From Patescibacteria group bacterium (lineage in GTDB: Bacteria > Patescibacteriota > Patescibacteriia > UM-FILTER-42-10), in contig JBAYKW010000007.1 in assembly GCA_041664365.1 (NCBI GenBank), positions 434 through 64,433 on the forward strand: a stretch of DNA of 64,000 nucleotides, given 5' to 3'. The notes below the pieces were generated by a model. The model was not told the DNA's origin. It saw nothing but the letters and a program-made list of their open reading frames with translations, and ran no database searches. Of the stretch, positions 7,367 to 32,501 are shown in pieces (the first letter of the stretch is position 1; each line of letters opens with the position of its first letter). The translations under genes and the position numbers were made by a program.

Positions 7367-7395
7367 TTGACAACTTTGTGACAATGATATATCTT
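7367..7395 (+). promoter_or_regulatory. Putative sigma70 promoter (TTGACA -35; TATATC/TATCTT -10 candidates) driving high-GC island 1
   Basis: cTTGACAactttgtgacaatgaTATATCtt read directly from the sequence. Confidence 0.3.
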
Positions 7396-7530
7396 TACTT
7401 AATTAAAGTGCTTTATTACGATAAAGTACCAATCGTTCCTTGATAAGTGAATCATGCGGAATATACCCAAAAAACAAACGACTTTCGGTACAAACCACGA
7501 TCCTCAACCCAAAGACAGGGAGGTGTCATC

Positions 7531-7773
7531 ATGACGATTGACTCGACCAGTATTATTACAGCCCTCAACAACCTGAGCGGAGTCACTCACATTTCGGAAA
7601 ACGGAGGTCTGACGGTCCGAATTCCCGACAACAGCGGGAAAACTGTTCACGTTGCCGTGGACCGCCTTACCGGCATCTGCACCTCGGACGGTCAGGTGGT
7701 CGGAACCCTCCCCACCAGCGAGATCAGCCAGGCGCTTCCTAACTCCATCTTCCCCCACAACCAGAAACGGTGA
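7531..7773 (+). CDS. Small hypothetical protein (80 aa), high-GC; paralog of the next gene
   Basis: Shine-Dalgarno GGGAGG 7 nt before the ATG; shares the motif V.V.R(L/M)TG.CT with the 7845 gene. Confidence 0.5.
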   Translation: MTIDSTSIITALNNLSGVTHISENGGLTVRIPDNSGKTVHVAVDRLTGICTSDGQVVGTLPTSEISQALPNSIFPHNQKR

Positions 7774-7844
7774 GTCGTTCCCCACCAACACTCTCCTCGT
7801 CCGATGACGCGTTCATTCGGAACGCACAGCACAGGAGGGTTACC

Positions 7845-8114
7845 ATGACCAGGCAGCTCATCATCGCCGAGATCTATAGGTACATCCGGTCCATTCAGGA
7901 CCAGGAGCTCGGCGCATGCATCGACGTTACCATCCCTTGGGGTAGGCAAGGTGAGATTTCCGTCCGCGTCGAGCGGATGACCGGTAAGTGCACTAATCTG
8001 CACACCGACATGGAGATGCTGACCATCGACCCTAAAGCCCTCGACGCGGCATTTGCCGTCCGAGCAACGAAGCACGGCATCAATGGAACCGAATCCATGG
8101 GAGCACACGCATGA
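7845..8114 (+). CDS. Small hypothetical protein (89 aa), high-GC; paralog of the 7531 gene
   Basis: Shine-Dalgarno AGGAGGG before the ATG; IDVTIPWGRQGEISVRVERMTGKCTN aligns with LTVRIPDNSGKTVHVAVDRLTGICTS. Confidence 0.5.
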   Translation: MTRQLIIAEIYRYIRSIQDQELGACIDVTIPWGRQGEISVRVERMTGKCTNLHTDMEMLTIDPKALDAAFAVRATKHGINGTESMGAHA

Positions 8115-8154
8115 TTTGCATATCGTTCGTCCCCACCGGACGAAACACAAAAAA

Positions 8155-8207
8155 GGCGACCAACAACTTAAGATCGCAACATCTTCAGAGGTCGCCTCAT
8201 TTTTTTT
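8155..8207. terminator. Two-tier hairpin (GGCGACC...GGTCGCC) followed by T8; bidirectional, serves the island-1 genes and folC
   Basis: An A-run precedes and a T-run follows; the right arm abuts the folC stop at 8197. Confidence 0.6.
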
Positions 8208-9504
8208 CCTTCAAGATTTCACCGATAGTATAAAGTGAGCCGGTAACAATTACTGTTCCATTATTCCCCGCCAATCTCTTCGCCATCACGATACCATCAT
8301 CCAATGAAGCGGTAATTATCCCTTTTGGATAATATTTTTTTAATTTTGATGCACGATAAAAATCCCTAAGATCATCAATCTTCGTTACATCCGGAAAAAT
8401 CAGTTTATCAGAAAATTTTGCCAGCGTACGCAATATAGCCGGTACCTGTTTTTTCGTGTTCTTTATACTGACTAGAAAAACAGTATTATGCGGTTTAACA
8501 CCCACGTCATGCAGTGCCTTGACTAATGCCCTGATGCTGAATAGATTATGCGCACCGTCCAGGATCACCATGGGATTTTTCTGCCAGATCTGGAATCTTG
8601 CCTCGTGCGCGGTGTTTCCGGCAGCTTTAATAATAGCCTGTGGCGGTATCACAAAACCCTGATTACTAAGTTGCCTGGCGGAAGCAAAAGCACAGGCAAA
8701 GTTTTCCGCCTGATGCCTGCCGATCAAGGACAGTCTCAGATTTCGATATATATCACCCTGATAACTGATATTAATATAAGTACCGGTCAAATCGACTTTT
8801 TTGATTGAATATTTTAGATCCTTGTTAATATTAATCAATGAGGCTTTTTTAGCTTTCACTTTATTTTTTATTACTTTCAGCGCGTTACCCTTAGCTGCTG
8901 TTGAAACTGCGTCATTGTTTTGGATTATGCCGGCCTTTTCTCCCGCTATTTTGGTAATTGTATTACCCAGGGATTTTGTGTGATCAAAGCTAATATTGGT
9001 AATGATTTTATTTTTCAAACCAACCGCCGTTGTTGCATCTAGCCGACCGCCCATGCCCACTTCGATAACAACTACATCTGTTTTTTCTTCGGCGAAATAC
9101 TGGACCGCCAGAGCGGTAGTAAACTCAAAAAATGTAACGTGATCTCCGCGTTTGCCGATTTCTTTCAGTAAGGGGATCATCCGGTCGCCGATTTTTTTCA
9201 CTCTCCGAAGAGTAATCGGCCTACCGTTGATCATAATCCTTTCACTGGGCGATACTAAATACGGAGAATAAAATGATCCGGTCTTATACCCAGCTTCCCT
9301 CAGAATCTTTTCTAGAAATGCCACGGCAGAACCCTTTCCTTTTGTGCCAGCTACCTGCACACCGATCAGTTTTTTTTCGGGACTGCCCATTTTCTGAAGC
9401 AGTGATTTGACCCGGTGCAGTTGCAAAAAATCCTTACTGACAAAGCGCGGGTCGTAAGGTTTCAGATATTTTTGGTACTGATTGAATATTTCTTTTGCTC
9501 TCAC
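8197..9504 (-). CDS. folC: Folylpolyglutamate synthase / dihydrofolate synthase
   Basis: Mur-ligase P-loop VAGTKGKGS; 435 aa. Confidence 0.8.
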   Translation of the reverse strand: MRAKEIFNQYQKYLKPYDPRFVSKDFLQLHRVKSLLQKMGSPEKKLIGVQVAGTKGKGSAVAFLEKILREAGYKTGSFYSPYLVSPSERIMINGRPITLRRVKKIGDRMIPLLKEIGKRGDHVTFFEFTTALAVQYFAEEKTDVVVIEVGMGGRLDATTAVGLKNKIITNISFDHTKSLGNTITKIAGEKAGIIQNNDAVSTAAKGNALKVIKNKVKAKKASLININKDLKYSIKKVDLTGTYINISYQGDIYRNLRLSLIGRHQAENFACAFASARQLSNQGFVIPPQAIIKAAGNTAHEARFQIWQKNPMVILDGAHNLFSIRALVKALHDVGVKPHNTVFLVSIKNTKKQVPAILRTLAKFSDKLIFPDVTKIDDLRDFYRASKLKKYYPKGIITASLDDGIVMAKRLAGNNGTVIVTGSLYTIGEILKEKK

Positions 9505-10334: not shown

Positions 10335-10362
10335 AGCCTAATTATAGCAGATGCCGACAAAA

Positions 10363-10391
10363 TTGACATTGAACTATTTCATTGTTATTAT
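10363..10391 (+). promoter_or_regulatory. Near-consensus sigma70 promoter (TTGACA, 17 bp spacer, TATTAT)
   Basis: aaTTGACAttgaactatttcattgtTATTATgg, about 65 nt upstream of the GTG at 10461. Confidence 0.5.
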
Positions 10392-10460
10392 GGCGACTCA
10401 GGTTAGTGCAAATTAGCATGAACCTAAACCCGCACATTTTAATGGTGGAAGGAGCCAGTC

Positions 10461-10868
10461 GTGGCTGACGATGGAAAGAAGCGACACGCTTTTGAATACC
10501 TTGTGCACTGCCTCATGGGAGACGTAGCACATGCTAGGGTATTGCGTACCCTAATCCAAACAGGGTTCGTTACCCACGAGGAATTGGGCATCAAGCCCGA
10601 AGACGTGGACACATTCCAAGCACTGTCCCGTATCGCGGACCCCAAAGAACGTGCCATTACGGCATTCCGCGGTTGCCGTGAAGGCAACGTTCTTGCCAAC
10701 TTCGGCGTGATCCAATTTCTTTTCCGTTCCCGCCAGATCAGGCCCACCGATCTGCGCGAGGGTGACGACAGCATCCTAAAGGTAGGCTCCGACCTGAGTC
10801 ATTTTCACAAAGCGCACACCGCACATCTCGCCAGGATTCTCCCATCGGAAAAATCCGCGCAAGACTAA
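10461..10868 (+). CDS. Hypothetical protein (135 aa), high-GC, GTG start
   Basis: Shine-Dalgarno GGAAGGAG 7 nt before the GTG; clean ORF ending at a terminator. Confidence 0.5.
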   Translation: MADDGKKRHAFEYLVHCLMGDVAHARVLRTLIQTGFVTHEELGIKPEDVDTFQALSRIADPKERAITAFRGCREGNVLANFGVIQFLFRSRQIRPTDLREGDDSILKVGSDLSHFHKAHTAHLARILPSEKSAQD

Positions 10869-10885
10869 CCCCTTGCGTTTTTTTA
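10857..10885 (+). terminator. Rho-independent terminator CGCAAG...CTTGCG + T7 (copy 1 of a duplicated terminator)
   Basis: Hairpin then TTTTTTT; near-identical copy at 11924-11951. Confidence 0.6.
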
Positions 10886-10937
10886 TTCTGCATATACAAA
10901 ATAAATCCGCCTCTGGCGGGTACTATGTTTATATCCA

Positions 10938-10966
10938 TTGACACTATGATTCAATCATGATAAATT
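10938..10966 (+). promoter_or_regulatory. Sigma70-like promoter (TTGACA, 17 bp spacer, TAAATT) with a perfect palindrome ATGATTcAATCAT in the spacer
   Basis: ccaTTGACActatgattcaatcatgaTAAATTcc. Confidence 0.45.
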
Positions 10967-10991
10967 CCACAACCTCCTCCTAGACAGTCTT

Positions 10992-11018
10992 CAGTTGTGC
11001 TCACGGTGAGGACAACTG
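10992..11018 (+). promoter_or_regulatory. 13-bp-arm near-perfect inverted repeat in the 5'UTR (CAGTTGTGCTCAC g GTGAGGACAACTG); operator or RNA hairpin
   Basis: One mismatch across 13-bp arms; lies between the promoter and the Shine-Dalgarno of the 11048 gene. Confidence 0.4.
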
Positions 11019-11047
11019 AATCACCTGTTTGTTCAGGGAGGAAACTA

Positions 11048-11341
11048 ATGACGTTTATTGGCAACACTCAACTCCCGAAATTCGGAGACATAATCCAGAT
11101 CACCATTCCCGGCAACCCCGGTTTCGTGCTGAAGGTCACCGTGATCTCCGAATGGGCCATCGACCAGGAGGAAGAAGAACACATCAGCTTCGTGTTTTTC
11201 CTGCCCCGTGACTCGTTCCCTCTGGTGTTCGCCCGTCGGGTCGTAACCCTGGACAAGACCAATGAGAAGTGGACCGTCCGCATCAAGAACGGCGAGTCCA
11301 CCATTATCCAGGAAGTCACCGTGAACATCCTCCGCGACTGA
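11048..11341 (+). CDS. Hypothetical protein (97 aa), high-GC
   Basis: Shine-Dalgarno AGGGAGG before the ATG; ORF ends at a terminator. Confidence 0.5.
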   Translation: MTFIGNTQLPKFGDIIQITIPGNPGFVLKVTVISEWAIDQEEEEHISFVFFLPRDSFPLVFARRVVTLDKTNEKWTVRIKNGESTIIQEVTVNILRD

Positions 11342-11367
11342 CTTCATCCCGCTCTTTCCCGCCACTC

Positions 11368-11391
11368 CACCATTTGGAATGGCTTTTTTTA
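11368..11391 (+). terminator. Terminator CCATTtggAATGG + T7 (copy 1 of the second duplicated terminator type)
   Basis: Hairpin plus T-run; similar copy at 11574-11602. Confidence 0.55.
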
Positions 11392-11422
11392 TTCTCACCA
11401 AAACGTAACCAATTATAGAAAG

Positions 11423-11450
11423 TTGACTTTCCATTCATAAAATATATAAT
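11423..11450 (+). promoter_or_regulatory. Consensus-like sigma70 promoter TTGACT, 16 bp spacer, TATAAT
   Basis: agTTGACTttccattcataaaataTATAATtt. Confidence 0.5.
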
Positions 11451-11456
11451 TTCTTT

Positions 11457-11602
11457 AGTCATACGTGGAGCAGGGGGTCTTCGTTTTGGACAGCATCCTC
11501 CACGGAGGGTGTCTGGGGTTAAAATCCCAGCCGGAGATCCCCTCTCCACCAAATATCAACGCTCTTTCCTAATCCATTCCTCCCTTTGGGATGGTTTTTT
11601 TT
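11457..11602 (+). ncRNA. Candidate structured RNA (small RNA or cis-regulatory leader) ending in an intrinsic terminator
   Basis: Transcript from the consensus promoter; nested helices (CTGGGGuuaaaauCCCAG, GGAGGG...CCCTCTCC); terminator hairpin plus T8 at 11574-11602; no convincing ORF. Confidence 0.35.
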
Positions 11603-11634
11603 ATTTTGACAGATTTTTTGCACCGTGTTATGTT

Positions 11635-11925
11635 ATGCCAACTGCCTTTCAGCAGAGAACCGACACCCGCGACTCAAGGAGAATAATATTGCTCTCGAAA
11701 CGCAGAATCAGAAGGCTCGTACGGCGCACCATCGCGTCATTTGTCGGCATTATTTTCGGTCTGGTTCCTGCCTGGTTCCTTCTTTATGATCTACACACAA
11801 CTCAAGGTAACAAACTCTATTTTGCCAAATGGTTATGGCCAATACTTACTGTGCAGTTCTTTCTGATCATTTTCACCTTCGCCTGGATCTGGGCGATCTG
11901 GACCAATCGGATCCCAGAACTCTAA
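11635..11925 (+). CDS. Small two-TM membrane protein (96 aa), high-GC; no obvious Shine-Dalgarno
   Basis: Arg-rich N-terminus then two strongly hydrophobic helices; the ORF ends exactly at a terminator. Confidence 0.35.
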   Translation: MPTAFQQRTDTRDSRRIILLSKRRIRRLVRRTIASFVGIIFGLVPAWFLLYDLHTTQGNKLYFAKWLWPILTVQFFLIIFTFAWIWAIWTNRIPEL

Positions 11926-11951
11926 CGCAAGCTGACCCTTGCGTTTTTTTA
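11924..11951 (+). terminator. Terminator CGCAAG...CTTGCG + T7 (copy 2)
   Basis: Near-identical to 10857-10885. Confidence 0.6.
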
Positions 11952-12014
11952 TACAAAGAAAAAAGGCGACCCTGCAGAGGTATCGCCTAAAACTCTCATA
12001 AACAGCAACGATGC

Positions 12015-12521
12015 TTAACGCGGACGATGGTGAGGATTGTACTTGCGGAAAGGCTCCCGCAGTTCTTGTGCCCGATAGAGCACGAGGCTCAGTTCGAGCA
12101 TCTCGTCCAGGGAATCGACCAGAAACACATTGGCAAGCCGGAGCTTGCGAAGGTGTTCGCGCACGAGTGCGCGTGCGCGCAGACTCTCCTTGCGCGCAAC
12201 GGGATCGTTGAGCTCATCGTTCAGCTTGTCATCGATCATGATGACGAACTCCCGATGATCATCGAGCCGGATGGCGTTCAGGATGCTGAACCCGGTTTCA
12301 GCCAGCGACCCGGTCCCGTAGGACTCGTCGGTCACGGGGAAGAGGATGACTGCATCCTCAGCGAGATGCTGTGCTTCCTCCACGGCACATTCGGGGGTCC
12401 AGTCCTCGACTTGGGGATTGAAGAAAGCGACACCAAGATCCTGGTACAGCTTGATGAACTTCGCGCGCCAGGTACTTGATCCACAGGTCCCGAACAATCC
12501 GATTGTTAGCATTACGCTCAC
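12015..12521 (-). CDS. Nucleoside 2-deoxyribosyltransferase-like (Nuc_deoxyrib_tr superfamily) protein, high-GC
   Basis: IGLFGTCG...DESYGTGSLAETGFSILNAIRLDD resembles the D.GT..E.G.A core of PF05014, assigned from memory; 168 aa. Confidence 0.45.
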   Translation of the reverse strand: MSVMLTIGLFGTCGSSTWRAKFIKLYQDLGVAFFNPQVEDWTPECAVEEAQHLAEDAVILFPVTDESYGTGSLAETGFSILNAIRLDDHREFVIMIDDKLNDELNDPVARKESLRARALVREHLRKLRLANVFLVDSLDEMLELSLVLYRAQELREPFRKYNPHHRPR

Positions 12522-12597
12522 CCTTTCATCCTTTTGTCCACTGACACGAGTGAACAGTCATCACTAGTCGCCACGAATGACATTGTGACGACACGAT

Positions 12598-12626
12598 AGG
12601 ATATCATAAAATATGTTTCATGTCAA
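12598..12626 (-). promoter_or_regulatory. Sigma70-like promoter (minus strand: TTGACA, 17 bp spacer, TATCCT) for the 12015-12521 gene
   Basis: Reverse complement reads TTGACAtgaaacatattttatgaTATCCT. Confidence 0.4.
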
Positions 12627-12654
12627 GACTTAATCATATTGTATAAATAAAAAA

Positions 12655-12690
12655 GAGGCGGCAACGAAGATGAAGCCGCCCTGTGCCTGA
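12655..12690 (-). terminator. Intrinsic terminator (GGCGGCttcatcttcgttGCCGCC + T-run on the minus strand)
   Basis: Hairpin followed by TCTTTTTT when read on the minus strand. Confidence 0.55.
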
Positions 12691-12997
12691 CTGGGATCAT
12701 TTGTCCCTCTTCCTGGGCTAGCCAGGCGATAGCCGAAAATGCGTGATGCATTTCCCTACCATTCGCCTTTTCAGGCGGGGGAAAAGGAGCTCGAGCTCTC
12801 TCTGTGGAGAAAGAAATGATAGCGACCCTTCTCTCGCAAGGGGAGTGTTTGCCTCGGCGCAGTGTGGTCCGGCTCCGTATCCTTGCCTTTTCCCCGAAAC
12901 AGATCGGGGACGGAGAGACGCTCCTCTCGACGCTGACTTTCAGGCGATCTGGGCCGTCCAGTGAATCATACGTCACCTCCCTTCCGGTTTTGGACGC
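12691..12997 (-). ncRNA. Candidate independent ~340-nt GC-rich transcript (small RNA, or mRNA of a doubtful small ORF) between its own promoter and terminator
   Basis: Minus-strand promoter at 13004-13031 and terminator at 12655-12690; strong Shine-Dalgarno AAGGGAGG plus ATG at 12976, but that ORF reads through the terminator. Confidence 0.3.
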
Positions 12998-13003
12998 ATA
13001 TTT

Positions 13004-13031
13004 ATATTAACATGAAAACATGATTAATCAA
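13004..13031 (-). promoter_or_regulatory. Sigma70-like promoter (minus strand: TTGATT, 16 bp spacer, TAATAT)
   Basis: Reverse complement reads TTGATTaatcatgttttcatgtTAATAT. Confidence 0.4.
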
Positions 13032-13076
13032 TGTCGGCCTGATACAGACTGCATATTATATTCTGCTCGCATATAA

Positions 13077-13115
13077 AAAAAGAGTCGCATGCAGTATGAG
13101 CAATTGACTCTAGCG
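13077..13115 (-). terminator. Terminator for the OMP gene (GAGTC...GACTC hairpin + T7 on the minus strand)
   Basis: A7 on the plus strand immediately 5' of the hairpin. Confidence 0.45.
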
Positions 13116-13133
13116 AAAGAACATGCCCGATCT

Positions 13134-14036
13134 TCAGTTGAGATCGAACTGCACAGACCAGATAATTGTCGGGTGGCTGTGCTGCTGAAGCACCAGATTG
13201 GGTTGGAACTTCAGTGCCCCCTGTCGTAGCTCGGCACCGACAACAACCTCGACATCATCCGTCACCAGTTGTTCTTGTGCCATCGTCAGTAGTGCAAATT
13301 GAGTCCGCTGGGTACAGCGCGCGGTCAGTGCGAATGATTCGTTCAAATCCGCCACAGCAGTAACCAGCCAGCCCCGGCTGTGTTGGAAATCTCTCCGCCA
13401 CAGCATGGCGGATTCCACACTCAGTCCAGATGCCGGACAAACCGACAACTTGCCGTAATACAGTGTACGCTCACCCGGCGGCTGACGACCGGACTGAAAT
13501 GCTCCGGAGAGACGCAGTGGTCCAATCCAGGACGACGTAACAGATGCTGTGAAGTCGCGTGACTGGTTGTCGTCCGGGACATTATGTCCCGATCCGTTGA
13601 ATACGCACGACTGGAATGATCCGAGCCGATTCGCGAACAGGATCGATACGCCGATGTCATACTGGTCAGTAATGTAATAGTCCGTCAACGCATAGGCTAC
13701 GAACCGCTTTTTCCCCGGCGAGGATTCAACCTGCATCATCGGGTTGGTGAACTGACCCAGACGCAATTTGCTCCTGCCTAAGATAGGCAGAGTCATCCGG
13801 TATTCGAGATAGACCTGAAGTGGGATTGTGTTCTTCCCCACCTGCGCCTCACCGAACAGTGTGAGACTGTCCATACTCGCGGTAAGGAATGGCCGAAGCC
13901 GGCGTAGTTCGAAGCCCTGCCCCGCATCCTGAATCTGACCGTAACCGCCGGCATGCAGAACAGGAAAATATTCCCCCGTCTGAGCCATGGCGCTCGCTGT
14001 ACAGAACAGCATTACTACCAGAACCACGTTTCTCAT
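13134..14036 (-). CDS. Secreted putative outer-membrane beta-barrel (porin-like) protein, high-GC
   Basis: Signal peptide MRNVVLVVMLFCTASAMA/QT; amphipathic beta-strand periodicity; aromatic-rich C-terminus ...WSVQFDLN. Confidence 0.5.
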   Translation of the reverse strand: MRNVVLVVMLFCTASAMAQTGEYFPVLHAGGYGQIQDAGQGFELRRLRPFLTASMDSLTLFGEAQVGKNTIPLQVYLEYRMTLPILGRSKLRLGQFTNPMMQVESSPGKKRFVAYALTDYYITDQYDIGVSILFANRLGSFQSCVFNGSGHNVPDDNQSRDFTASVTSSWIGPLRLSGAFQSGRQPPGERTLYYGKLSVCPASGLSVESAMLWRRDFQHSRGWLVTAVADLNESFALTARCTQRTQFALLTMAQEQLVTDDVEVVVGAELRQGALKFQPNLVLQQHSHPTIIWSVQFDLN

Positions 14037-14087
14037 GCGCGTCCCTCTCTTTCTGGATGTACACACCCTCCTTAAGCAAAGTTGTGT

Positions 14088-14116
14088 ATCTTAAACAAAC
14101 TTGCAGAGGATGTCAA
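14088..14116 (-). promoter_or_regulatory. Sigma70-like promoter (minus strand: TTGACA, 17 bp spacer, TAAGAT) for the OMP gene
   Basis: Reverse complement reads TTGACAtcctctgcaagtttgttTAAGAT. Confidence 0.4.
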
Positions 14117-14135
14117 GGATCATTTTATAACCAAA

Positions 14136-14170
14136 AACCACCCTAACAAACGTAACCAGGGTGGTTTTTT
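14136..14170. terminator. Bidirectional terminator AACCACCCT...AGGGTGGTT flanked by A5 and T6 (tig terminator)
   Basis: Lies between the tig stop at 14173 and the island. Confidence 0.6.
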
Positions 14171-14172
14171 AA

Positions 14173-17061: not shown

Positions 17062-18453
17062 TTAAAATTCTTTATTAACTGTAGCACGATCAGAGTTATC
17101 AGTCATCCCGATATATACAAAATCACATTTCTTTCCGCTTTTCACTACTTCGTCTTGGTTTATCCATGGTAAGTATCCAGCTTCAATAATTTGCCTGGAA
17201 AATTCTTCTGGTGGTAATTTAATGCCAGGTAGATATACGCTTACCGATTCAAATCCATCTGCCATCGTTAATGCTCGATCCAACAATTTTTCATCTCGCA
17301 TCCTCTGTTCTGACAAGGCATGTATCGCTCCGATTGTTTTTACACCTGTTTTAATAATTATATCCTTTACCGCATCATAAGACACATCTTCAGCCTCCCA
17401 GTGTGCTTCTTTTTTAACATTATCAGGATATGGCTCGGACCATTCTTTGATAAATGAATAAACAATGCATCGATGCGCCCCAAGCTGTTGAATAATTTTT
17501 TTAATTTTTGGTAACGCATTTTTATGTTTACAATCCAAAATCAATACAACGTCCGGAGCTTTATCCAGCATTTTCACGGCTGTGTCTATATCAATGTTTT
17601 GGGGTAGAGGCAAATTATTTTTAACATAATACTCTTTTGGGTGCCCAACATATATTTTACCGGTTTGATCATCATATGCTATATCCAATTCGATGCTCGT
17701 ACCTTTACTGATCGCTTCTCGTATTGTATCTTCATGCACCTCCCGCATATGCCAATAGATATAAGGTCTGTTTATTTTTTTTGCTTTTTCAATCGGATGA
17801 ATATTTTCTATCGGCTTGCCGGTCAGAAGAGAAATTTTTTCTAAAACCTGTCCGGTAATTTCGTGCAGTATATCTTTATTTAATTCCTGATCATAATATG
17901 AATCAAAGGTCATCGGTTGTCCAAAATTTATTCTGATTTCATGTTTTCTGCAAAAAATTAATGACAATAACTTCACATCTTTATCGTTCGGACCAATATA
18001 GCCGACGGGGATTACCGGGCACTTCGCCCATAGTGCCAGACGAGCCACCCCTGTTCTCCCTCTGCCGATCGTATCATCATAGTGCCTGTGCCCCTCCGGG
18101 AATATTCCGACTATTCCTCCCTGTTTCAGATGATCCGACGCTATTTCCAAACAGCGCCCCGGGTTTTCTTTATCAACATAAATCATCCCAAACCACCGTT
18201 CTCCAACCAGACTACCAAAAAACTTTTTTAATTCTATTTTACTGATAAATCTTGGTTTGGTTCTGCTATGACGCCCCGTAATAAAAGCGATTAACAGCGG
18301 GTCCATAAAACTTACATGGTTGGCAGCAATGATGTATGGCCCCTTTGTCGGTATATTTTCTATGCCGGTAATTTTTTTTATCCGCAACATAATAATCGGC
18401 GTCAACAAAATCCGCGTTAAATGAAAAAATATCGTATCTTTCTGTCTTTCTAC
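17062..18453 (-). CDS. Fusion protein: lysophospholipid acyltransferase (PlsC) domain plus glycerophosphodiester phosphodiesterase-like (GDPD) domain
   Basis: NHVSFMDP (HX4D) and FPEGHR acyltransferase motifs N-terminal; HMRE...ENT-like...IELDIAYDDQTGKIYVGHP GDPD signature C-terminal; start taken at MVERQ (ATGA overlap with the upstream gene). Confidence 0.6.
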   Translation of the reverse strand, partial: VERQKDTIFFHLTRILLTPIIMLRIKKITGIENIPTKGPYIIAANHVSFMDPLLIAFITGRHSRTKPRFISKIELKKFFGSLVGERWFGMIYVDKENPGRCLEIASDHLKQGGIVGIFPEGHRHYDDTIGRGRTGVARLALWAKCPVIPVGYIGPNDKDVKLLSLIFCRKHEIRINFGQPMTFDSYYDQELNKDILHEITGQVLEKISLLTGKPIENIHPIEKAKKINRPYIYWHMREVHEDTIREAISKGTSIELDIAYDDQTGKIYVGHPKEYYVKNNLPLPQNIDIDTAVKMLDKAPDVVLILDCKHKNALPKIKKIIQQLGAHRCIVYSFIKEWSEPYPDNVKKEAHWEAEDVSYDAVKDIIIKTGVKTIGAIHALSEQRMRDEKLLDRALTMADGFESVSVYLPGIKLPPEEFSRQIIEAGYLPWINQDEVVKSGKKCDFVYIGMTDNSDRATVNKEF

Positions 18454-18992
18454 CATCGCTTGTTGATTTTTAAATAGTAACCGATATTGCGCACCAGAAT
18501 ATGCAAAACAAAAGTGAATACAATCAGCGCCAAAGAGCGTACCCAACCGACCGGCCAAATAATTGATACTAAAGCGATCGCCCCAACAGCAGCATCTATC
18601 TGGTCCCAGGGCATAAACTTTTTTCCCGGCGCAATACCCACCCGCCTTTTGATAAAACTTTTGACCATATCACCGAACAGTGCGCCGAACCCGATTAAGA
18701 AACCTACAAGCCATACCGAATATTGATCATAAGGAAATATGCTGATCTTTTCAAATGTTTCAAACTGCATCAACCATTTTTGAATCGCAACAATTATTAT
18801 ACTAATAGAAGTCCCACTGATTAGACCTCGCCAAGTTTTATGATCACCGAGCAGGTTTTTGCCGTCAAACCATTTAAAATTAAAATCAACCGGATGCGCC
18901 AGCCACTTCCAGTGTTCTTTCATCAAAACCGGCATCATATTAGCAAAAATGCCGGGCAACATAAAATATAAATAGGCTAAAAGAATCATCAA
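18450..18992 (-). CDS. CDP-archaeol synthase-like (CarS/DUF46) integral membrane protein
   Basis: 180 aa polytopic membrane protein; KTWRG motif; CarS-like proteins are recurrent in CPR genomes. Confidence 0.55.
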   Translation of the reverse strand: MMILLAYLYFMLPGIFANMMPVLMKEHWKWLAHPVDFNFKWFDGKNLLGDHKTWRGLISGTSISIIIVAIQKWLMQFETFEKISIFPYDQYSVWLVGFLIGFGALFGDMVKSFIKRRVGIAPGKKFMPWDQIDAAVGAIALVSIIWPVGWVRSLALIVFTFVLHILVRNIGYYLKINKRW

Positions 18993-19056: not shown

Positions 19057-19085
19057 TTGACGTGTCTTGGATAATACTCTAGTAT
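19057..19085 (+). promoter_or_regulatory. Putative sigma70 promoter (TTGACG, 17 bp spacer, TAGTAT) for island 3
   Basis: aTCTTGACGtgtcttggataatactcTAGTATgg. Confidence 0.35.
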
Positions 19086-19201
19086 GGTAATTACATTGAC
19101 AATTTGTTCAAGTTATCAAGAGTGATTCAGATCCCGCCTTTGCGGGAATACGCAGGACCGGCCTGCTAAAAACTGAATCCAGCAACCCTCTCCAAGGAGG
19201 A

Positions 19202-19237
19202 ATGGGTGCTAACTCCGGCCCAATGCGGGGAAGATGA
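19202..19237 (+). CDS. Candidate 11-aa leader peptide (MGANSGPMRGR) with a strong Shine-Dalgarno in the long 5'UTR
   Basis: AAGGAGGA 1 nt before the ATG; followed by a weak hairpin plus T5 at about 19257-19276. Confidence 0.2.
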   Translation: MGANSGPMRGR

Positions 19238-19305
19238 TAGAAGTCAGATGCTTTCCTTAGGGGAAGTTTTTGTTTTAACAAGTCACTCCAGCCGGGAGGA
19301 ACCCC

Positions 19306-19653
19306 ATGGCCAGCCCAACTAGCAATCAGGTTTTTCACGCACTGTGCGTCCGCGCCGAAGCATCCGGTCACCATTCACATGGACATCCGCTCTGTGTCCT
19401 GATTCAGGGACGCGAGGCGTTCCTCTGCGAACGTCACGACACTCCCGAAGGTTGGGTTACGCGGACAGTCTGCATTCCACCGGAGGATATCCTCAACTAC
19501 GTCGGCGAAGAAGACGCTGACGCAATTCGGTCGAAATTCCCGATCTTCTCCGATCAGTTCACCGTCAACGGTGACAACTACCCCCAGCCGGAAGGATTCG
19601 GGGCTCCCGTGAGAATCGAACCGAAACCGGAGCCTGCACCGCAGGCAAGCTAA
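19306..19653 (+). CDS. Hypothetical protein (115 aa), high-GC, His/Cys-rich N-terminus (HHSHGHPLC...C)
   Basis: Shine-Dalgarno GGGAGG before the ATG. Confidence 0.5.
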   Translation: MASPTSNQVFHALCVRAEASGHHSHGHPLCVLIQGREAFLCERHDTPEGWVTRTVCIPPEDILNYVGEEDADAIRSKFPIFSDQFTVNGDNYPQPEGFGAPVRIEPKPEPAPQAS

Positions 19654-19664
19654 GGAGCGAAACC

Positions 19665-19865
19665 ATGTCACTGCGCGACGGGCTCACACTTGCTGAGGCG
19701 ACCGTTCGCCAACAGCACCTGGACCAGGTACACCAGTCCAATTCTCTGACTGAAGACGAATGCGTCATTCGGAGAGTTATCGCTCAGTACGAAGCGGGCG
19801 AAGACACTCCGGCTACCCGGGTACTCTCCGACTGGATCGCCAGTCGCACGGCACAATCCACCTAA
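19665..19865 (+). CDS. Hypothetical small protein (66 aa), high-GC
   Basis: Shine-Dalgarno AAGGAG 8 nt before the ATG; 11 nt after the previous stop (operon-like). Confidence 0.45.
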   Translation: MSLRDGLTLAEATVRQQHLDQVHQSNSLTEDECVIRRVIAQYEAGEDTPATRVLSDWIASRTAQST

Positions 19866-19887
19866 TCGTTCATTCACCCAAATCGAA

Positions 19888-19921
19888 AGGACCATGGTTC
19901 CCCACGGCCCTTTTTTTTATT
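19888..19921 (+). terminator. Putative terminator (GGACCATGGTTCC palindrome region + T8)
   Basis: T8 run after GC-rich dyad; stem is imperfect. Confidence 0.35.
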
Positions 19922-19935
19922 TCTACCAATCGATC

Positions 19936-21951
19936 CTAGATTAACAAACCAACAATCAGCAGTGCTACTACATTGATCACTTTGATCATCGGGTTGATCG
20001 CCGGACCGGCCGTATCTTTATACGGATCGCCGACTGTGTCGCCGGTAACCGCCGCCTGATGCGCCGGAGAATTTTTTCCGCCGTAATGCCCGTCTTCAAT
20101 ATATTTCTTGGCATTGTCCCAAGCCGCTCCGCCCGCTGTCATTGATAGTGCGACAAAGACACCGGTAATGATTGAACCGATCAACATTCCGCCCAGCGCG
20201 TCGATCCCTAATAAAAATCCAACGGCAATTGGCGCAACAACCGGGATTGCTGCCGGAAATATCATTTCTTTCAATGCCGCCTTAGTTACAATATCAACTG
20301 CTTTGCCGTATTCCGGTTTGGCAGTACCTTCCATAATCCCCTTAATCTCACGAAACTGTCTGCGCACTTCTTCAACCACACTGGTTGCAGCCCGGCCAAC
20401 AGAGCGCATCGCGACTGAACCGAATAAATATGGTAGGGAACCGCCGATGAACAGACCGATCAGAACATTATGATTACTCAAAGCAAATTGAGCATCAATT
20501 CCTTTATCCATAATTTCCTGTACATATGATGCAAACAACACCATCGCAGCCAAGCCGGCTGAGGCGATTGCATACCCCTTTGTAACTGCTTTAGTTGTGT
20601 TGCCCACTGAATCCAGTGGATCAGTTACCGCTCTGACCGATTCCGGCATGTCGGACATCTCGGCAATTCCGCCGGCGTTATCAGTAATCGGGCCAAAGGA
20701 ATCGATGGCAACAATAATTCCTGTTAAAGAAAGCATCGCCATGGTTGCAATGGAAATTCCATAGAGACCAAGATCATAATCGCCAAGTAACATATAGCTG
20801 GCCAATATTCCGCCGACAATCACCAGTACCGGCAAGAAAGTTGATTCCATGCTGACTGATATTCCTGTAATAATATTTGTTCCGTGACCACCCTCTGATG
20901 ATTTGGCGATACTCTTAACCGGACGGTATTCTTTTGATGTGTAATATTCTGTAATCACTACAATTAACCCGGTAATCACTAATCCTATTAAACTGGCATA
21001 AAATATACTCATGGCATAAGGTTTGTCGCCAAATGCATTATCAGTCGCAAAGTAAAAAAGAACTGCCGCGACTAAACCGCTGACAATTATTCCTTTATAC
21101 AGCGCGCCCATGATGTTGGGTTTGTTATTGTTTAGCCGGACAAAGAAACTGCCGATCACCGAAGCGATAATCGCCAGTCCGCCCAGAATCAACGGGAACT
21201 CAACTGCTGTCTGTTGTAACACACTGTCACTTTTGAATATCAGTGAGCCCAGTAACATCGCGGCAATTGTTGAAACTGCATAAGTCTCAAATAGGTCCGC
21301 GGCCATACCGGCGCAGTCACCGACATTATCACCGACATTATCCGCGATCACGGCCGGGTTGCGTGGATCATCTTCCGGAATACCGGCTTCAACCTTACCC
21401 ACTAAATCCGCTCCGACATCCGCACCCTTGGTAAAGATACCACCACCTAAACGGGCAAACACAGAAATCAGTGATCCGCCCAGACCCAAACCAACCAGAG
21501 CTTTAAGATCTGAAGTAATAAAATAAAAACCGGCGACAGACAGTAACCCGAGGCCAACTACCATGAACCCCGTTACTGCACCACCTTGAAAAGCAATATC
21601 AAAAGCTTTCTTAATTCCGGATCTGGCCGCTTCCGCTGTTCGGACGTTGGTACGCACCGAAACATTCATTCCGATGTACCCGGCGAGTGCCGAACTGATT
21701 GCGCCAATCAGAAATCCGAATGCAGTCAGTTTACCTAGTGCGAGCCAAAGGATTACGAAAAGAATTGCGGCAACAATTGCGACTGTTCTATATTCCCGTT
21801 TAATAAAAGCGGCGGAACCCTCGCGGATAGCCTTAGCAATATCTTTCTGTTTGCCTTCACCCTCTGGTTTTTTCATTATCGAAATAATAAGGAAAATACC
21901 ATATGCAAGCGCGATCAGCGCTGCTACGATAGACCAATGCACAAGTCTCAT
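19936..21951 (-). CDS. hppA: Membrane-bound proton/sodium-translocating pyrophosphatase
   Basis: 671 aa; [23 protein letters not shown] motifs. Confidence 0.9.
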
Positions 21952-23412: not shown

Positions 23413-23443
23413 AAATAAAAAAAGCTACCTTGGAAAGATAGCT
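23413..23443 (-). terminator. Terminator for prs (AGCTA...TAGCT + T8 on the minus strand)
   Basis: A8 on the plus strand precedes the hairpin. Confidence 0.5.
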
Positions 23444-24434
23444 AGCGCTGTTCGAAGCAGATTGCCGAGACGGAAGTCTCTGTGGTAATTGCCTCGATGG
23501 CGGGGGCAAAAACATCCGCGAATGAACAAACCTTGATATTCGAGCCGAAACCCGCCTTCATGCCGATAGGGATGGTGTCTCCCACAATCAGCGACTTCAG
23601 ACGAGACTGCCCGATCTTGCCGACAGCATCCCCGGAGAATACCGGATGTGCTGCGATCCCGTGAACAACCCTGGCACCGCTATCCAGCACGGCTTCCGCG
23701 GCACCGATCATCGTACCACCACCATCGACCATGTCATCCAGAATGATGCAGATGCACCCCTTCGGATCACCGTAGATCTCGTTGACCCGGGAATGTCCGT
23801 GTCCACTACGTTCCTTGTCGATGATCACGACACGATCTCCCGGGAAACGGTGTTTGCGGTAGTTACGGACCATTTTACCGCCATTGATATCCGAAGATAC
23901 CAGCGCAAACGGCGTATCCGGTCCGTATTCTTCCCGTTCACTCGCCACGATCCGCTTGATCTCCGGCACCATTACCGGATACATGTACAGGTGGTCACAA
24001 GGGATGTTGAAGAACCCTTGGATCTGCGCGGCGTGCAGTTCCGCCGTGACTACCCGGTTGGCACCGGCGGCAGCCAAAAGGTCCGCGACCAGTCTCGCGG
24101 TGATCGGCACCCTACCTTCCTTCTTGCGGTCCTGGCGCGCACAGCCGAAATACGGCATCACTGCCGTAACCGCGGCGGCCGAAGCTCGCTTGGCAGCATC
24201 AATCATCACGAGCAGCTGCATCAGATTGTCGGCGGGTGGCTGAGTGGACTGGATGATGAAGACGTGTCTTCCACGCACATTCGCATCCAGCTGAGCGAAA
24301 GGTTCTCCGTCAGCAAACGGAGTGGTTTTGGCCGGGCTCAGAGGAACGCCCAGTTTGGACGCAATCGCCTGAGCCAGCTCAGGGCACGATCCGCCGGAAA
24401 AAAGCACGATTCTGGAGAGATCCATTGTCGCCAC
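23442..24434 (-). CDS. prs: Ribose-phosphate pyrophosphokinase, high-GC
   Basis: 330 aa; PRPP-binding loop and full Prs architecture; composition far from flanking genes. Confidence 0.85.
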   Translation of the reverse strand: MATMDLSRIVLFSGGSCPELAQAIASKLGVPLSPAKTTPFADGEPFAQLDANVRGRHVFIIQSTQPPADNLMQLLVMIDAAKRASAAAVTAVMPYFGCARQDRKKEGRVPITARLVADLLAAAGANRVVTAELHAAQIQGFFNIPCDHLYMYPVMVPEIKRIVASEREEYGPDTPFALVSSDINGGKMVRNYRKHRFPGDRVVIIDKERSGHGHSRVNEIYGDPKGCICIILDDMVDGGGTMIGAAEAVLDSGARVVHGIAAHPVFSGDAVGKIGQSRLKSLIVGDTIPIGMKAGFGSNIKVCSFADVFAPAIEAITTETSVSAICFEQR

Positions 24435-24516
24435 CTCCTCACAGGCAAGTTACAGGGTCTTAGTTGTCAAAGGTTTATTACCTTAACATGCCTATTTGAA
24501 GAATTCAAGTAAATAA

Positions 24517-24547: not shown

Positions 24548-24551
24548 CCTT

Positions 24552-25679: not shown

Positions 25680-25765
25680 AATTTTTCCTCTTTTACTTTT
25701 TTAAGGGACACTTGTCTTATACAGACAGTGTTTCATCTTACTACAGCAATTCTAAAAGTGTCAAA

Positions 25766-26161: not shown

Positions 26162-26244
26162 AACAAAACGCCCTTTCAAGGCAGTGCGCTTTATAAAAAA
26201 GCGCCCTGCCAAGAGGGCGCCCAATAATCAATTTATTTATAGCA

Positions 26245-26802: not shown

Positions 26803-26849
26803 GTTCTTTGAGATTAGTGTCCTTTATTATTATACTTCATTTCTTGTTC

Positions 26850-27464: not shown

Positions 27465-27512
27465 CCCTTCTACAAACAGTATATCACTATTAATAGTAAC
27501 GGAAAATGGCTG

Positions 27513-28790: not shown

Positions 28791-28807
28791 TGAATTATCT
28801 TTAATAA

Positions 28808-30007: not shown

Positions 30008-30019
30008 AGTATTTTAATA

Positions 30020-30979: not shown

Positions 30980-30996
30980 TAAATTTGATTTAAAAA

Positions 30997-31320
30997 TTAT
31001 AGGTTTTCGTCGATGACTTTCTGCAGATCTTCTTTTGACTGTGCTCCGATCGATTGCTTAACAACTTCCCCATCCTTAAAAAATAAAAAGGTCGGGATAC
31101 TCATGACGTTATATTTCTGCGTTGTGGCCTGATTTTCATCAATATTCATTTTTGCAATTTTTACTGCCTTACCTTCATTGTCCTTCATTAATTCTTCCAT
31201 TACCGGTAACATGATTTTGCATGGTGTACACCATTCCGCCCAGATATCAACCAAAACTAGCTGGTCGTGCTTTAACACTTCCTGCTCAAAATTATTATCA
31301 TTTATTTCAACGCCTGCCAT
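30997..31320 (-). CDS. trxA: Thioredoxin
   Basis: WCTPC active site. Confidence 0.85.
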   Translation of the reverse strand: MAGVEINDNNFEQEVLKHDQLVLVDIWAEWCTPCKIMLPVMEELMKDNEGKAVKIAKMNIDENQATTQKYNVMSIPTFLFFKDGEVVKQSIGAQSKEDLQKVIDENL

Positions 31321-31342
31321 TGTATAATTCCTTTCCTATTAA

Positions 31343-31609
31343 TTAAGTTAATTTAAATAAATTAGTTGTAATCTTTTCCAAATCCTCTGATTTCTTTTTA
31401 ATACTTCCCTCCCCAGTTAGACACTCTCTTGATTCATTGCGCAACACACTTACGCCCAACGAATCCAGTGACGCTCTCGCGGCCATTAACTGTGTAATTA
31501 TTTCACCACAGTTACGCTTATCCTGTAACATTCTCTCAATGCCTTTTAGTTGGCCTATAATTCGCCGTAGATGTGCCTGATTCTTTGGTATTTTATCAGT
31601 ATTTGCCAT
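31343..31609 (-). CDS. CsoR/RcnR-family metal-sensing transcriptional repressor
   Basis: 88 aa; HLRRIIGQLKGIERML...C...helical DUF156 pattern with conserved Cys and His. Confidence 0.65.
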   Translation of the reverse strand: MANTDKIPKNQAHLRRIIGQLKGIERMLQDKRNCGEIITQLMAARASLDSLGVSVLRNESRECLTGEGSIKKKSEDLEKITTNLFKLT

Positions 31610-31719
31610 GATTGTGTAATTATAATATACCCCCCTAGGGTATATTATATTAATTCCAAAAAATTGTCAATAGACATAACTCATTTCAATTATATCCTCA
31701 ATATGACTTGGGTCTTAAA

Positions 31720-31750
31720 TAAAAAATGCCCCAGCCAATGATGGTGGGGC
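31720..31750 (-). terminator. Terminator for csrA (GCCCCA...TGGGGC + T6 on the minus strand)
   Basis: A6 on the plus strand precedes the hairpin. Confidence 0.5.
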
Positions 31751-31778
31751 GGGCGAGAAATGTACAGCGAATGAAGAG

Positions 31779-31988
31779 TTACCTGTTTTTGGTTTTGGTC
31801 CCTCGTTTGCGCGAGCCCTGAGGGATTTCGCTGGCGATCTCGATAGCGATCTCCTCGCGGTGAACAGGGATGCTCCTGGGAGCGTCGATCCCGATCTGAA
31901 CCTGGTCGCCCCTGATGTCGACGACCATGATCGAGATATCGTCCCCGATCATGATTTTTTCGTTGCGCTTGCGGCTGAGGATCAGCAT
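31779..31988 (-). CDS. csrA: Carbon storage regulator CsrA (RNA-binding), high-GC
   Basis: MLILSRKRNEKIMIGDDI...VHREEI; Shine-Dalgarno AAGGAGGA before the ATG; GGA motifs in the 5'UTR. Confidence 0.8.
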   Translation of the reverse strand: MLILSRKRNEKIMIGDDISIMVVDIRGDQVQIGIDAPRSIPVHREEIAIEIASEIPQGSRKRGTKTKNR

Positions 31989-32501
31989 GGGTCTTCCTCC
32001 TTGAATGGGCCGTTTTGCTCCCTGAGAATCCATGGAAGCCGGATTACAATAACAAATAATGAAATATTAATCAAGCCCCTACCTATTTATCTGATGTTCC
32101 ACGTAGAACAAAATCAAAAACCGCCCTATTCATATGGGGACGGATTTATCATTTGCCGTATAATTTTGTTTATTTAGTTCGACTCACACATTGATAAGGA
32201 TGAATTTGGTATTTTGATAATATGAATCACAACCTGCACACCATCTGCACTCGAGACATTCGGTTATTAATAGTTGAGTGGCCGAAACCCTAACAAAGTG
32301 AGAGATACCCTCCAGACATAATCGGGACACTCGACTCATTGTTGGATAAGATAATCCTTGTCGTTAGTAATGAGTGGTCGAAGACCACGTTAAGCCTCTC
32401 GACTTCGCTCGAGGCACTCGATTCTTCTTTTGATATTGTCGAAGGCGTTAGTAGCGCCATAGACCACGAGTGAGTCCCGAACTTGTGAGGGACGAATCGA
32501 G

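Follow-up and report, generated by a model that had tools for sequence, protein, structure and literature searches.

GC-rich accessory islets, probably old and moron-like, between core genes near the likely replication origin of a Kerfeldbacteria-related Patescibacteria contig

The stretch of DNA analysed here (the window, 64,000 nucleotides (nt), positions 434 to 64,433 of contig JBAYKW010000007.1) belongs to a Kerfeldbacteria-related Patescibacteria contig and carries a backbone of ordinary core genes, including tig, nusA, folC, an nfo-like AP endonuclease gene, the gene for H+-pyrophosphatase (H+-PPase), gdh, trxB and rnhB. This backbone is interrupted by five GC-rich segments (islands 1 to 5), whose content, history and composition are the subject of this work. 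Read in reverse complement, the window covers most of the ENA metagenome contig ERZ27249449 k141_641551 (76.7 kb), and a second record of the same contig (NCBI/JGI, 76,574 bp, the first having 76,700 bp) is part of a metagenome-assembled genome (MAG) named "Patescibacteria group bacterium". The likely replication origin, placed at about 35.6 kb (window approximately 35550-38600) by the position of dnaA and dnaN and by the minimum of the cumulative GC skew, leaves all the islands on one replichore at 4-28 kb from it; because of this position, the plus-strand island units (island 1, units 2a-2d and island 3) are head-on to replication. As detailed below, the segments are genuine genomic DNA lying in inter-operon gaps of the origin-proximal chromosome, and three of their elements are RNA and not protein, namely a SAM-I-like leader (SAM, S-adenosylmethionine), a conserved RNA of about 345 nt and a candidate small RNA.

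The segments span 7.37-8.21, 10.36-14.13, 19.06-19.92, 23.42-24.51 and 31.72-32.09 kb and show a GC content of 0.54-0.58 and a GC content at third codon positions (GC3) of 0.56-0.78, against about 0.40 and 0.30-0.45, respectively, in the backbone. In sliding windows of 100 and 400 nt they run at 0.50-0.65 GC and their surroundings at about 0.28-0.45, with sharp steps in the intergenic gaps, and the genes that flank them are intact. Five abruptly GC-rich segments that leave their neighbours undisrupted had been described in an earlier, sequence-only reading of this DNA, and both sliding-window GC and codon usage bear out that description. Based on a mechanical call of open reading frames (ORFs), the island ORFs have a GC of 0.47-0.58 and a GC3 of 0.56-0.78, and most of the 48 backbone ORFs have a GC3 of 0.30-0.45. 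The cleanest discriminator is the C/(C+T) ratio in two-fold pyrimidine-ending codons, which is 0.58-0.87 in 11/11 island ORFs and 0.06-0.52 in 48/48 backbone ORFs, so that the two sets do not overlap. A GC-rich left edge (1-400) was considered as a sixth island and proved to belong to a core AAA (RarA-like) gene, whose 3' end lies there. Ribosomal or other known RNA genes were likewise rejected as the source of the GC peaks, as Rfam at gathering thresholds returned three tRNAs only.

For comparison, two closest species-level genomes (L002 and L003, groundwater Patescibacteria MAGs whose trigger factor is 96% identical to that of the window), four remoter genomes from other samples and projects (L082, L083, L084 and L085; 81-85%), a Candidatus Kerfeldbacteria MAG (L004; 65%) and a still remoter genome syntenic with the window (L005) were used. 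At least five other genomes, each assembled independently, carry these islands at the corresponding sites, as the synteny comparison with related Patescibacteria proposed in the sequence-only reading made clear. By blastn, L002 and L003 align with the window at 78-85% nucleotide identity through islands 1, 3 and 4 and unit 2a, and tblastn detected P1a, P1b, P2a, P3a, P3b and Prs in them at 63-92% amino acid identity; in L082, L083 and L085, prs, csrA, P3b, P1b, P2g and the 2f RNA were found at syntenic sites by blastn or tblastn. In the remoter genomes the island 3 element lies between the H+-PPase gene and carS, P1b follows folC, and P2g together with 2f follows tig. Orthologous islands share 55-92% amino acid identity in genomes of several projects and samples, and all island ORFs for which an ortholog exists have a ratio of nonsynonymous to synonymous substitution rates (dN/dS) of 0.06-0.5, showing that the island ORFs are under purifying selection. 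Synonymous p-distances among the window, L002 and L003 are 0.33, 0.32 and 0.29 in the islands and 0.37, 0.39 and 0.34 in the backbone, with the same ranking. Since they are syntenic, diverged, under purifying selection and ranked in distance like the backbone, the islands have been inherited vertically with the genome.

This inheritance has been accompanied by turnover. In L005, tig and nfo overlap, the H+-PPase gene abuts plsC and folC abuts the next gene, and because these genes are adjacent there, the sites of islands 1-3 are empty in this compact version of the gene order. The tig-nfo gap holds units 2a-2g in the window, 2a and 2d in L002 (2b, 2c and 2e-2g being absent) and only 2a in L003, where 2b-2g are absent and the 2b promoter survives as a decayed copy downstream of 2a; in L085 it holds a P2g ortholog, the 2f RNA, a gene of the 2b family and other orphans. 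This distribution points to the gap being a hot spot shaped mainly by differential loss from a richer ancestral set. In L082 the same gap (19573-20406) is occupied by an AT-rich pair of genes, one for an M78 peptidase (ImmA/IrrE-like) and one for a helix-turn-helix (HTH) protein, instead of GC-rich units, and in L004 by two unrelated ORFs with raised GC3. Non-homologous inter-operon ORFs with a GC3 of 0.55-0.65 were also observed in L004 (2179-7641) and L005 (21-581 and 9114-9521), those of L004 occupying the tig-nfo, nfo-folC and post-folC gaps among others; GC-rich islets may be a wider habit of the Kerfeldbacteria-like group.

Read for expression signals, the islands comprise about 12 self-contained units, each with a promoter-like site, a strong Shine-Dalgarno sequence and an intrinsic terminator (Table 1). 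Each of the seven abutting units of island 2 (2a-2g) begins with a -35/-10 pair and a leader, continues with either a GGAGG-type Shine-Dalgarno sequence or an RNA body, and closes with a hairpin and its T-run; the view of the segments as five modules was too simple in this respect, with seven units in island 2 alone and several GC-rich pieces that are RNA, not protein. Between 7.0 and 26.9 kb, 57 sigma70-like sites (34.8 +/- 6.4 in shuffles) and 33 terminator-like sites (19.7 +/- 4.8 in shuffles) were detected; of the 15 best promoter sites (at least 10/12 matches), 7 mark the 5' end of an island unit. The proposal that every segment has its own near-consensus promoter is borne out for island 1 and, within island 2, for six units out of seven, the 2f site having been recognised by eye and being absent from the scan list, but the promoters are weaker in island 3 (9/12), prs (absent from the scan list) and csrA (8/12, by eye). 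Strong Shine-Dalgarno sequences and terminators, also part of that proposal, were confirmed, terminator-like sites exceeding the shuffles and the units being autonomous by sequence.

Table 1. Positions in the window of the island units, their predicted signals and ORFs, and the genes around the likely origin
Feature	Position	Strand	Remarks
Island 1 promoter-like site	7367..7395	+	TTGACA-17-TATCTT; scan 10/12; both hexamers invariant in window, L002, L003
Island 1 leader hairpin	7408..7429	+	9 bp stem, UACG loop; read from sequence
P1a	7531..7773	+	80-aa orphan; GGAGG Shine-Dalgarno; no Pfam, NCBIfam or PHROG family
P1b	7845..8114	+	89-aa orphan; weak P1a paralog, E = 4e-4
Long hairpin	8152..8212		A-run and T-run flanks; read from sequence
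Unit 2a	10363..10885	+	promoter TTGACA-17-TATTAT (11/12), P2a ORF, terminator 10857-10878
P2a ORF	10461-10868	+	135 aa, helical-repeat orphan
Unit 2b	10938..11392	+	promoter TTGACA-17-TAAATT, P2b ORF, terminator
P2b ORF	11048-11341	+	97-aa orphan
Unit 2c	11423..11606	+	promoter TTGACT-16-TATAAT (11/12), candidate small RNA of ~150 nt, terminator
Unit 2d	11606..11952	+	promoter TTGACA-17-TATGTT, P2d ORF, terminator
P2d ORF	11689-11925	+	78 aa, TTG start; cluster representative 78 aa
Unit 2e	11955..12626	-	promoter TTGACA-17-TATCCT (12626-12598), P2e ORF, terminator 11955-11990
P2e ORF	12015-12521	-	nucleoside 2-deoxyribosyltransferase-like; Pfam PF15891
Unit 2f	12650..13031	-	promoter-like TTGATT-16-TAATAT, conserved RNA of ~345 nt (12650-12996), terminator
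Unit 2g	13075..14116	-	promoter TTGACA-17-TAAGAT (14116-14088), P2g ORF, terminator
P2g ORF	13134-14066	-	signal-peptide-like N-terminus, beta-rich
Island 3 promoter-like site	19057..19085	+	TTGACG-17-TAGTAT; scan 9/12
SAM-I-like aptamer and terminator hairpin	19110..19275	+	aptamer 19110-19240, hairpin 19250-19275; RF00162
P3a	19306-19653	+	115-aa orphan
P3b	19665-19865	+	66-aa orphan
Island 3 terminator	19880-19918	+
Island 4	23423..24508	-	promoter TTGAAT-17-TGtTAAGGT (24508-24480), prs ORF, terminator 23423-23443
prs ORF	23442-24434	-	ribose-phosphate diphosphokinase; NF002320 340.7 bits, cut-off 297
Island 5	31722..32091	-	weak promoter-like TTGATT-17-TATTGT (8/12), csrA ORF, terminator 31722-31760; both signals read from sequence
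csrA ORF	31779-31988	-	69 aa from MLILSRK start; AAGGAGGA Shine-Dalgarno
dnaA	35902-37266	+	right of likely origin
dnaN	37485-38591	+	right of likely origin
rnpA, yidC		-	left of likely origin

Eight of the 11 island proteins have no family in Pfam, NCBIfam or PHROG, in agreement with the earlier statement that most of them are orphans, but Prs, CsrA and P2e do have family relatives; a search of PDB by sequence gave nothing useful for the orphans. Prs passed the curated full-length family test (TIGR01251, 272.1 against a cut-off of 113), its gene lies between a surface-protein gene and nusA also in L002, L003, L082, L083 and L085, its promoter block is invariant in five genomes and its dN/dS is 0.06-0.11. 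The Prs clade consists of six clusters, after which identity drops to 50% or less, toward Desulfuromonadales, Bdellovibrionota and similar taxa. CsrA passes Pfam PF02599 (82.7 bits, cut-off 27) and its orthologs occupy the same site in L082 and L083, beside csoR-like and trx genes. Relatives of CsrA (50-67% identity) were also found on IMG/VR viral contigs. In island 1, about 50 nt around the leader hairpin are invariant in the window, L002 and L003 while the flanks diverge; P1a has orthologs in L002 and L003 (81-86% amino acid identity, dN/dS 0.11-0.15) and P1b in L002, L003 and L085 (55-63%, dN/dS 0.3-0.5). The long hairpin that ends this island is read as a putative bidirectional terminator common to island 1 and the convergent folC, whose stop codon (8197-8199) lies inside the 3' arm.

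In island 2, the promoter, leader and Shine-Dalgarno sequence of unit 2a are nearly invariant in three genomes and P2a has a dN/dS of 0.11-0.15; among 1.84 billion (1.84e9) representative proteins, P2a matched its own cluster and two weak helical-repeat proteins only. Unit 2b is absent from both L002 and L003, and a distant P2b homolog (24% identity, E = 4e-8) occurs in the L085 hot spot. P2d, hydrophobic and probably membrane-spanning, has an ortholog in L002 (dN/dS 0.13). P2e matched PF15891 with 28.6 bits (E = 1.8e-6), below the cut-off of 30; a sequence search gave no relative in PDB, and its AlphaFold model has a predicted local distance difference test score (pLDDT) of 50.2, too poor for a fold search. 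Relatives of P2e with 56-61% identity lie on two IMG/VR viral contigs of 36-46% GC, one of them beside an apparent SbcCD-type nuclease pair, judged by size and N-terminal sequence. Taken together, the viral contigs with P2e or CsrA relatives (L092, IMGVR_UViG_3300038361_000164; L093, IMGVR_UViG_3300035661_000391; and L094-L105) range from 36% to 63% GC, and in every case the GC3 of the gene follows that of its contig. In both L083 and L085 the P2g site holds a homolog with 64% identity (dN/dS 0.08-0.12), and P2g forms three clusters among 5.8 billion (5.8e9) proteins, all in this clade; neither a porin nor any other match was found in Pfam, NCBIfam or PHROG, and its AlphaFold model, with beta strands only, has a pLDDT of 29.7 and is unusable for a fold search. 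The terminators of 2a and 2d (10857-10885 and 11924-11952) are near-copies of each other, as are those of 2b and 2c (11362-11398 and 11574-11610; 81% over 37 nt), which suggests that unit ends may have been duplicated or have recombined with each other.

Two units of island 2 are RNA genes. The candidate small RNA of unit 2c (11451-11606), which is preceded by the best promoter match in the region, has a predicted fold of -60.8 kcal/mol (z = -4.84; 0/200 shuffles as stable); it has no Rfam family and no copy in any fetched relative. The RNA of unit 2f is 74-78% identical to its counterpart in L085 (11020-11385), the two sharing long identical blocks and showing indels of 1-2 nt, and of its 84 predicted pairs eight are compensatory. 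In both the window and L085 it adjoins the P2g gene, and a 9-codon ORF preceded by a strong Shine-Dalgarno sequence stands at its start. No Rfam family corresponds to it, and a search with a conserved 21-mer from it recovered only the L085-type genome in JGI metagenomes and no viral contigs. Two other identities were considered and rejected for 2f, namely a protein gene, as the frame of its 117-aa ORF is broken by the 1-2 nt indels relative to L085, and a CsrA sponge of the CsrB/RsmZ type, as its 11 GGA motifs are no enrichment over the 9.3 +/- 2.1 of dinucleotide shuffles.

The third RNA element is the leader of island 3. This 190-nt leader matches the SAM-I riboswitch family (RF00162) with 34.3 bits (E = 1.1e-5), short of the gathering score of 44.4, and the element scores 29.6-36.2 bits in L002, L003 and L082. 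Its likeness to SAM-I lies in the core strings UAUCAAGAG, GCAACC, GGUGCUAA-UCC and AGAU-AU, in a four-helix P1-P4 junction with conserved core and covariation, and in a terminator farther downstream, the 5' arm of which has the 3' part of the aptamer as an alternative partner; based on the sequence, pairing of the 5' arm of the 19250-19275 terminator with GGGGAAGAU could provide the usual OFF-switch layout. The element is 78-90% identical across five genomes, far above the downstream ORFs, and in these genomes the -35 hexamer is always TTGACG and the -10 hexamer either TAGTAT or TAATAT. In the predicted junction and terminator 98.4% of cells are paired, against at most 53.5% in slid controls, and eight cells changed on both sides, a count reached by 0/500 shuffles; the covariation falls mostly in an inserted hairpin and the terminator, and the P3/P4 pairs never vary. 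Apart from its score, the element differs from SAM-I in P2, where a 48-nt insertion with two hairpins replaces the usual helix, the position in which a kink-turn normally sits, and in its genetic context. SAM-I riboswitches usually control genes of methionine or SAM metabolism, but this one precedes tiny orphan genes. The P3b family lies downstream of it in 5/5 genomes, with tandem paralogs in L085, and P3a was found only in the window, L002 and L003 (dN/dS of P3a and P3b 0.16-0.44). P3a and P3b are a probable SAM-repressed pair of small proteins, SAM binding being predicted.

The composition of the islands also bears on their origin. In five genomes, the GC3 of the island orthologs is 0.64, 0.68, 0.68, 0.51 and 0.57 and that of the backbone 0.40, 0.39, 0.41, 0.29 and 0.34, an offset of 0.94-1.19 logits in each of them. 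Between the window and L082 or L083 the synonymous divergence (dS) exceeds 2 or is not computable, and identity at four-fold sites is 0.29-0.39, that is, saturated; at synonymous sites shared by the window and L082, the state (G/C or A/T, S or W) shows a correlation of at most 0.18. Among the three close genomes, the polarised synonymous changes amount to 135 S>W and 99 W>S, where the backbone per-site rates predict about 180:83. Because the GC3 excess is constant despite saturated synonymous divergence, a transfer that has not been ameliorated fits these data poorly.

Altogether, the segments are on balance best explained as old accessory islets that work like phage morons and are kept GC-rich by a GC-favouring force. 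In such a model, the sigma70-type RNA polymerase of the host would transcribe each unit from its own promoter, each ORF would be translated from its strong Shine-Dalgarno sequence, and an intrinsic terminator would close the unit, the upstream native gene keeping its own; since each unit would be terminated and the native genes self-terminated, units could come or go without disturbing their neighbours. The cargo would provide add-on functions such as synthesis of phosphoribosyl pyrophosphate (prs), post-transcriptional control (csrA) and probable nucleoside salvage (P2e), as well as the probable SAM-repressed pair P3a/P3b and a presumably secreted beta-rich protein (P2g). The units probably entered the ancestor of the clade from GC-richer sources, as signs of which one can take their amino acid usage, the raised GC at first and second codon positions, the GC-type codons for Leu, Arg and Ser and the GC-rich untranslated spacers. 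Natural competence has been described for Patescibacteria, as have horizontally acquired pathways in some of their lineages (PMC11665869), and the presence of the P2e and CsrA families on IMG/VR viral contigs indicates a possible entry route. The GC-richness would not be a fading trace of that entry, and a GC-favouring force acting on synonymous and untranslated sites would hold the offset steady.

Several points weigh against this explanation. As the orphans are confined to the clade, the foreign ancestry rests on composition (including a shift from Lys to Arg), patchiness and empty sites; no donor lineage was found for any unit in the sets of 5.8e9 and 1.84e9 proteins or in the metagenome and viral scans, and the nearest Prs outgroups, 45-50% identical, are at a distance ordinary between phyla and constitute no proof of transfer. 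Among the island proteins, no integrase or mobility families were detected with Pfam, NCBIfam and PHROG, and the island edges show no target-site duplications and no flanking, bounding or att-like repeats. The equilibrium GC3 of about 0.6 implied for the islands derives from parsimony polarisation, which is biased toward 50% GC at this divergence, and neutral decay is still allowed if the ancestral GC3 at the root of the clade was at least 0.95. The backbone codon set consists of window genes and contains no ribosomal-protein genes, and transcription, promoter use and termination are predicted.

More tentatively, it can be proposed that about a dozen autonomous gene and RNA units form a discrete GC-rich "compartment" that the clade retains within its AT-rich core and whose GC excess has stayed constant (about one GC3 logit) through saturation; we regard this as possible rather than probable. 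If true, a dedicated GC-favouring process would act on these units only, in place of ordinary transfer followed by amelioration, candidates being selection that favours stable, GC-rich mRNAs in insulated monocistronic units, and biased gene conversion in which an unseen reservoir of phages or plasmids serves as partner. The compartment would then also hold undescribed RNAs, namely the SAM-I variant controlling orphan micro-proteins and the structured RNA of about 345 nt.

A stable offset would be expected as well if the islets were native, very highly expressed genes, never foreign, with a GC3 excess due to translational selection for C-ending codons, an explanation that we judge unlikely. The excess, stable over saturated divergence, has the size of classic expression-linked bias: the preference for C- over U-ending codons (S), taken on Phe, Tyr, Ile and Asn, is 1.4-1.9 in the five genomes, on the scale reportedly set out by Sharp et al. 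in 2005. The codon shift is strongest in NNY boxes and missing in the Gly and Ala boxes, dS in the islands is lower than in most backbone genes, and tig and trx lean weakly toward NNC (0.39-0.41 against a mean of 0.30). However, the shift of Leu, Arg and Ser toward CTS, CGS (CGG included) and TCG and that of Lys, Glu and Gln toward G-ending codons are of the GC type and not optimal-codon usage. GC at the first and second codon positions is raised too, and amino acid composition changes with it (Lys 3.5% in islands against 8.9% in the backbone, Arg 7.4% against 4.0%); likewise, untranslated regions and spacers within the islands have a GC of 0.49, compared with 0.28 in backbone intergenic DNA. 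Moreover, the units are orphan, vary in presence and have sites empty in L005, and genes expected to be abundantly expressed (tig, nusA and that of H+-PPase) are far from the island values.

The moron-like anatomy of the units, the occurrence of P2e and CsrA families on IMG/VR contigs, and the M78 peptidase and HTH pair in the L082 hot spot, typical of mobile elements, would fit remnants of prophages or other mobile elements, that is, true morons or cargo left after decay of the element. This is rather improbable, as phage structural, integrase and recombinase genes are absent in and beside the islands, PHROG matches are negligible, att-like repeats are lacking, the flanks are core genes next to oriC, and no relatives of P1b, P2a, P2g and P3b appeared in the viral scans.

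Very improbable is the recent, repeated transfer from a single high-GC Gram-negative donor whose GC has not yet ameliorated, the first of the origins suggested in the sequence-only reading. The units are indeed broadly alike in GC and codon usage (their GC3 of 0.56-0.78 is only mildly heterogeneous, p = 0.019), P2g combines a signal-peptide-like N-terminus with an all-beta secondary structure, and the closest Prs outgroups that carry a name belong to Desulfuromonadales, Bdellovibrionota and similar taxa. Yet lineages whose synonymous sites are saturated against each other carry the islands at shared positions, and the islands predate the split of these lineages, synonymous changes are near balance and not dominated by GC-to-AT, donor-like sequences are missing from the protein sets and scans mentioned above, and the relatives of P2e belong to phage contigs of 36-46% GC. 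An outer membrane in the donor, also suggested, depended on one protein, P2g, whose model gives no fold. Finally, a chimeric assembly or an engineered construct, which has in its favour nothing more than sharp GC steps and a tidy layout of promoter, ORF and terminator, is hardly credible, as the same contig was assembled twice in independent assemblies, islands 1, 3 and 4 and unit 2a recur at about 80-85% nucleotide identity in two other MAGs and islands 3, 4 and 5 and units 2f/2g in remoter genomes of other projects, purifying selection on the ORFs and conserved regulatory blocks are seen across genomes, and the units have diverged together with the genomes that carry them.

Small extra genes with their own promoter and terminator and a deviant composition, located between genes that are adjacent in relatives and free to come and go with no harm to the operons on either side, are the "morons" of phages, reportedly described by Juhala et al. 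and by Hendrix et al. in 2000. The islets share these traits, those of islands 1-3 lying between tig and nfo, H+-PPase and plsC, and folC and its next gene, which are adjacent in L005; they differ from morons in that they reside in a cellular core beside oriC (tig, nusA, folC, H+-PPase, and dnaA at 35.9 kb) and not in a phage, are old and vertically inherited across the clade with a stable compositional offset instead of the trace of a fresh transfer, and include RNA genes or riboswitch-controlled units. With genomic islands they have in common atypical GC and codons, accessory or orphan cargo, presence/absence variation at tig-nfo and one unit near tRNA genes, but the islets measure 0.3-1 kb each, lack integrase, flanking direct repeats and mobility genes, have no donor found, and do not decay in composition as the amelioration model predicts. 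Island 2 also resembles integron cassettes in being made of small, hairpin-ended single-gene units arranged end to end; its units, however, have their own promoters, lie on both strands and end in ordinary intrinsic terminators with T-runs, they show no attC or attI signature, and no integrase-family match was found among the island proteins, to which the scan was confined. The islets are regarded here as an unusual variant of horizontally derived accessory islets: old, vertically inherited, partly RNA and with a steady GC offset. Literature searches turned up no earlier account, for Patescibacteria, of islets of this kind or of the riboswitch variant.

With the islets so explained, a pattern that looked alarming, possibly a chimera or an engineered sequence, becomes natural biology, and reduced Patescibacteria genomes would carry moron-like small accessory units at fixed inter-operon hot spots beside the origin. 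Compositional "foreignness" need not mean recent transfer, and regions of this kind would be misjudged both by methods that detect transfer from GC and by the filters that remove contamination from MAGs. Should the steady GC offset reflect selection or biased conversion, it would bear on what sets bacterial GC content. In addition, the islets offer testable parts for an uncultivated phylum: two candidate RNAs, a switch that probably responds to SAM, and candidates for strong promoters and terminators.

Some further observations concern the surroundings of the islands. The genes for tRNA-Ala(GGC), tRNA-Ala(CGC) and tRNA-Arg(CCT) (32502-33151, minus strand), separated by spacers of 20-25% GC, adjoin island 5 and read GC-rich codons that are unusually common in island genes. 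A 16-nt palindrome, TGTTCCACGTGGAACA, occurs twice (32095-32110 and 32870-32885, one copy with one mismatch; expected count 0.21), just upstream of the csrA promoter and between two of the tRNA genes, and may be a regulator-binding site. Next to island 3, the H+-PPase (19936-21951, minus strand) is 98-99% identical to those of L002 and L003 but only 51% to those of L082, L083 and L085, its neighbours being 81-91% identical; its dS relative to L002 and L003 is low (0.75-0.79), and the gene appears to have been swapped in place for a distant version in one sub-lineage. The PlsC-like acyltransferase ORF (17062-18558, minus strand) encodes 498 aa with an extra C-terminal domain and corresponds to two genes (218 and 244 aa) in L002, the number of plsC paralogs varying in other relatives.

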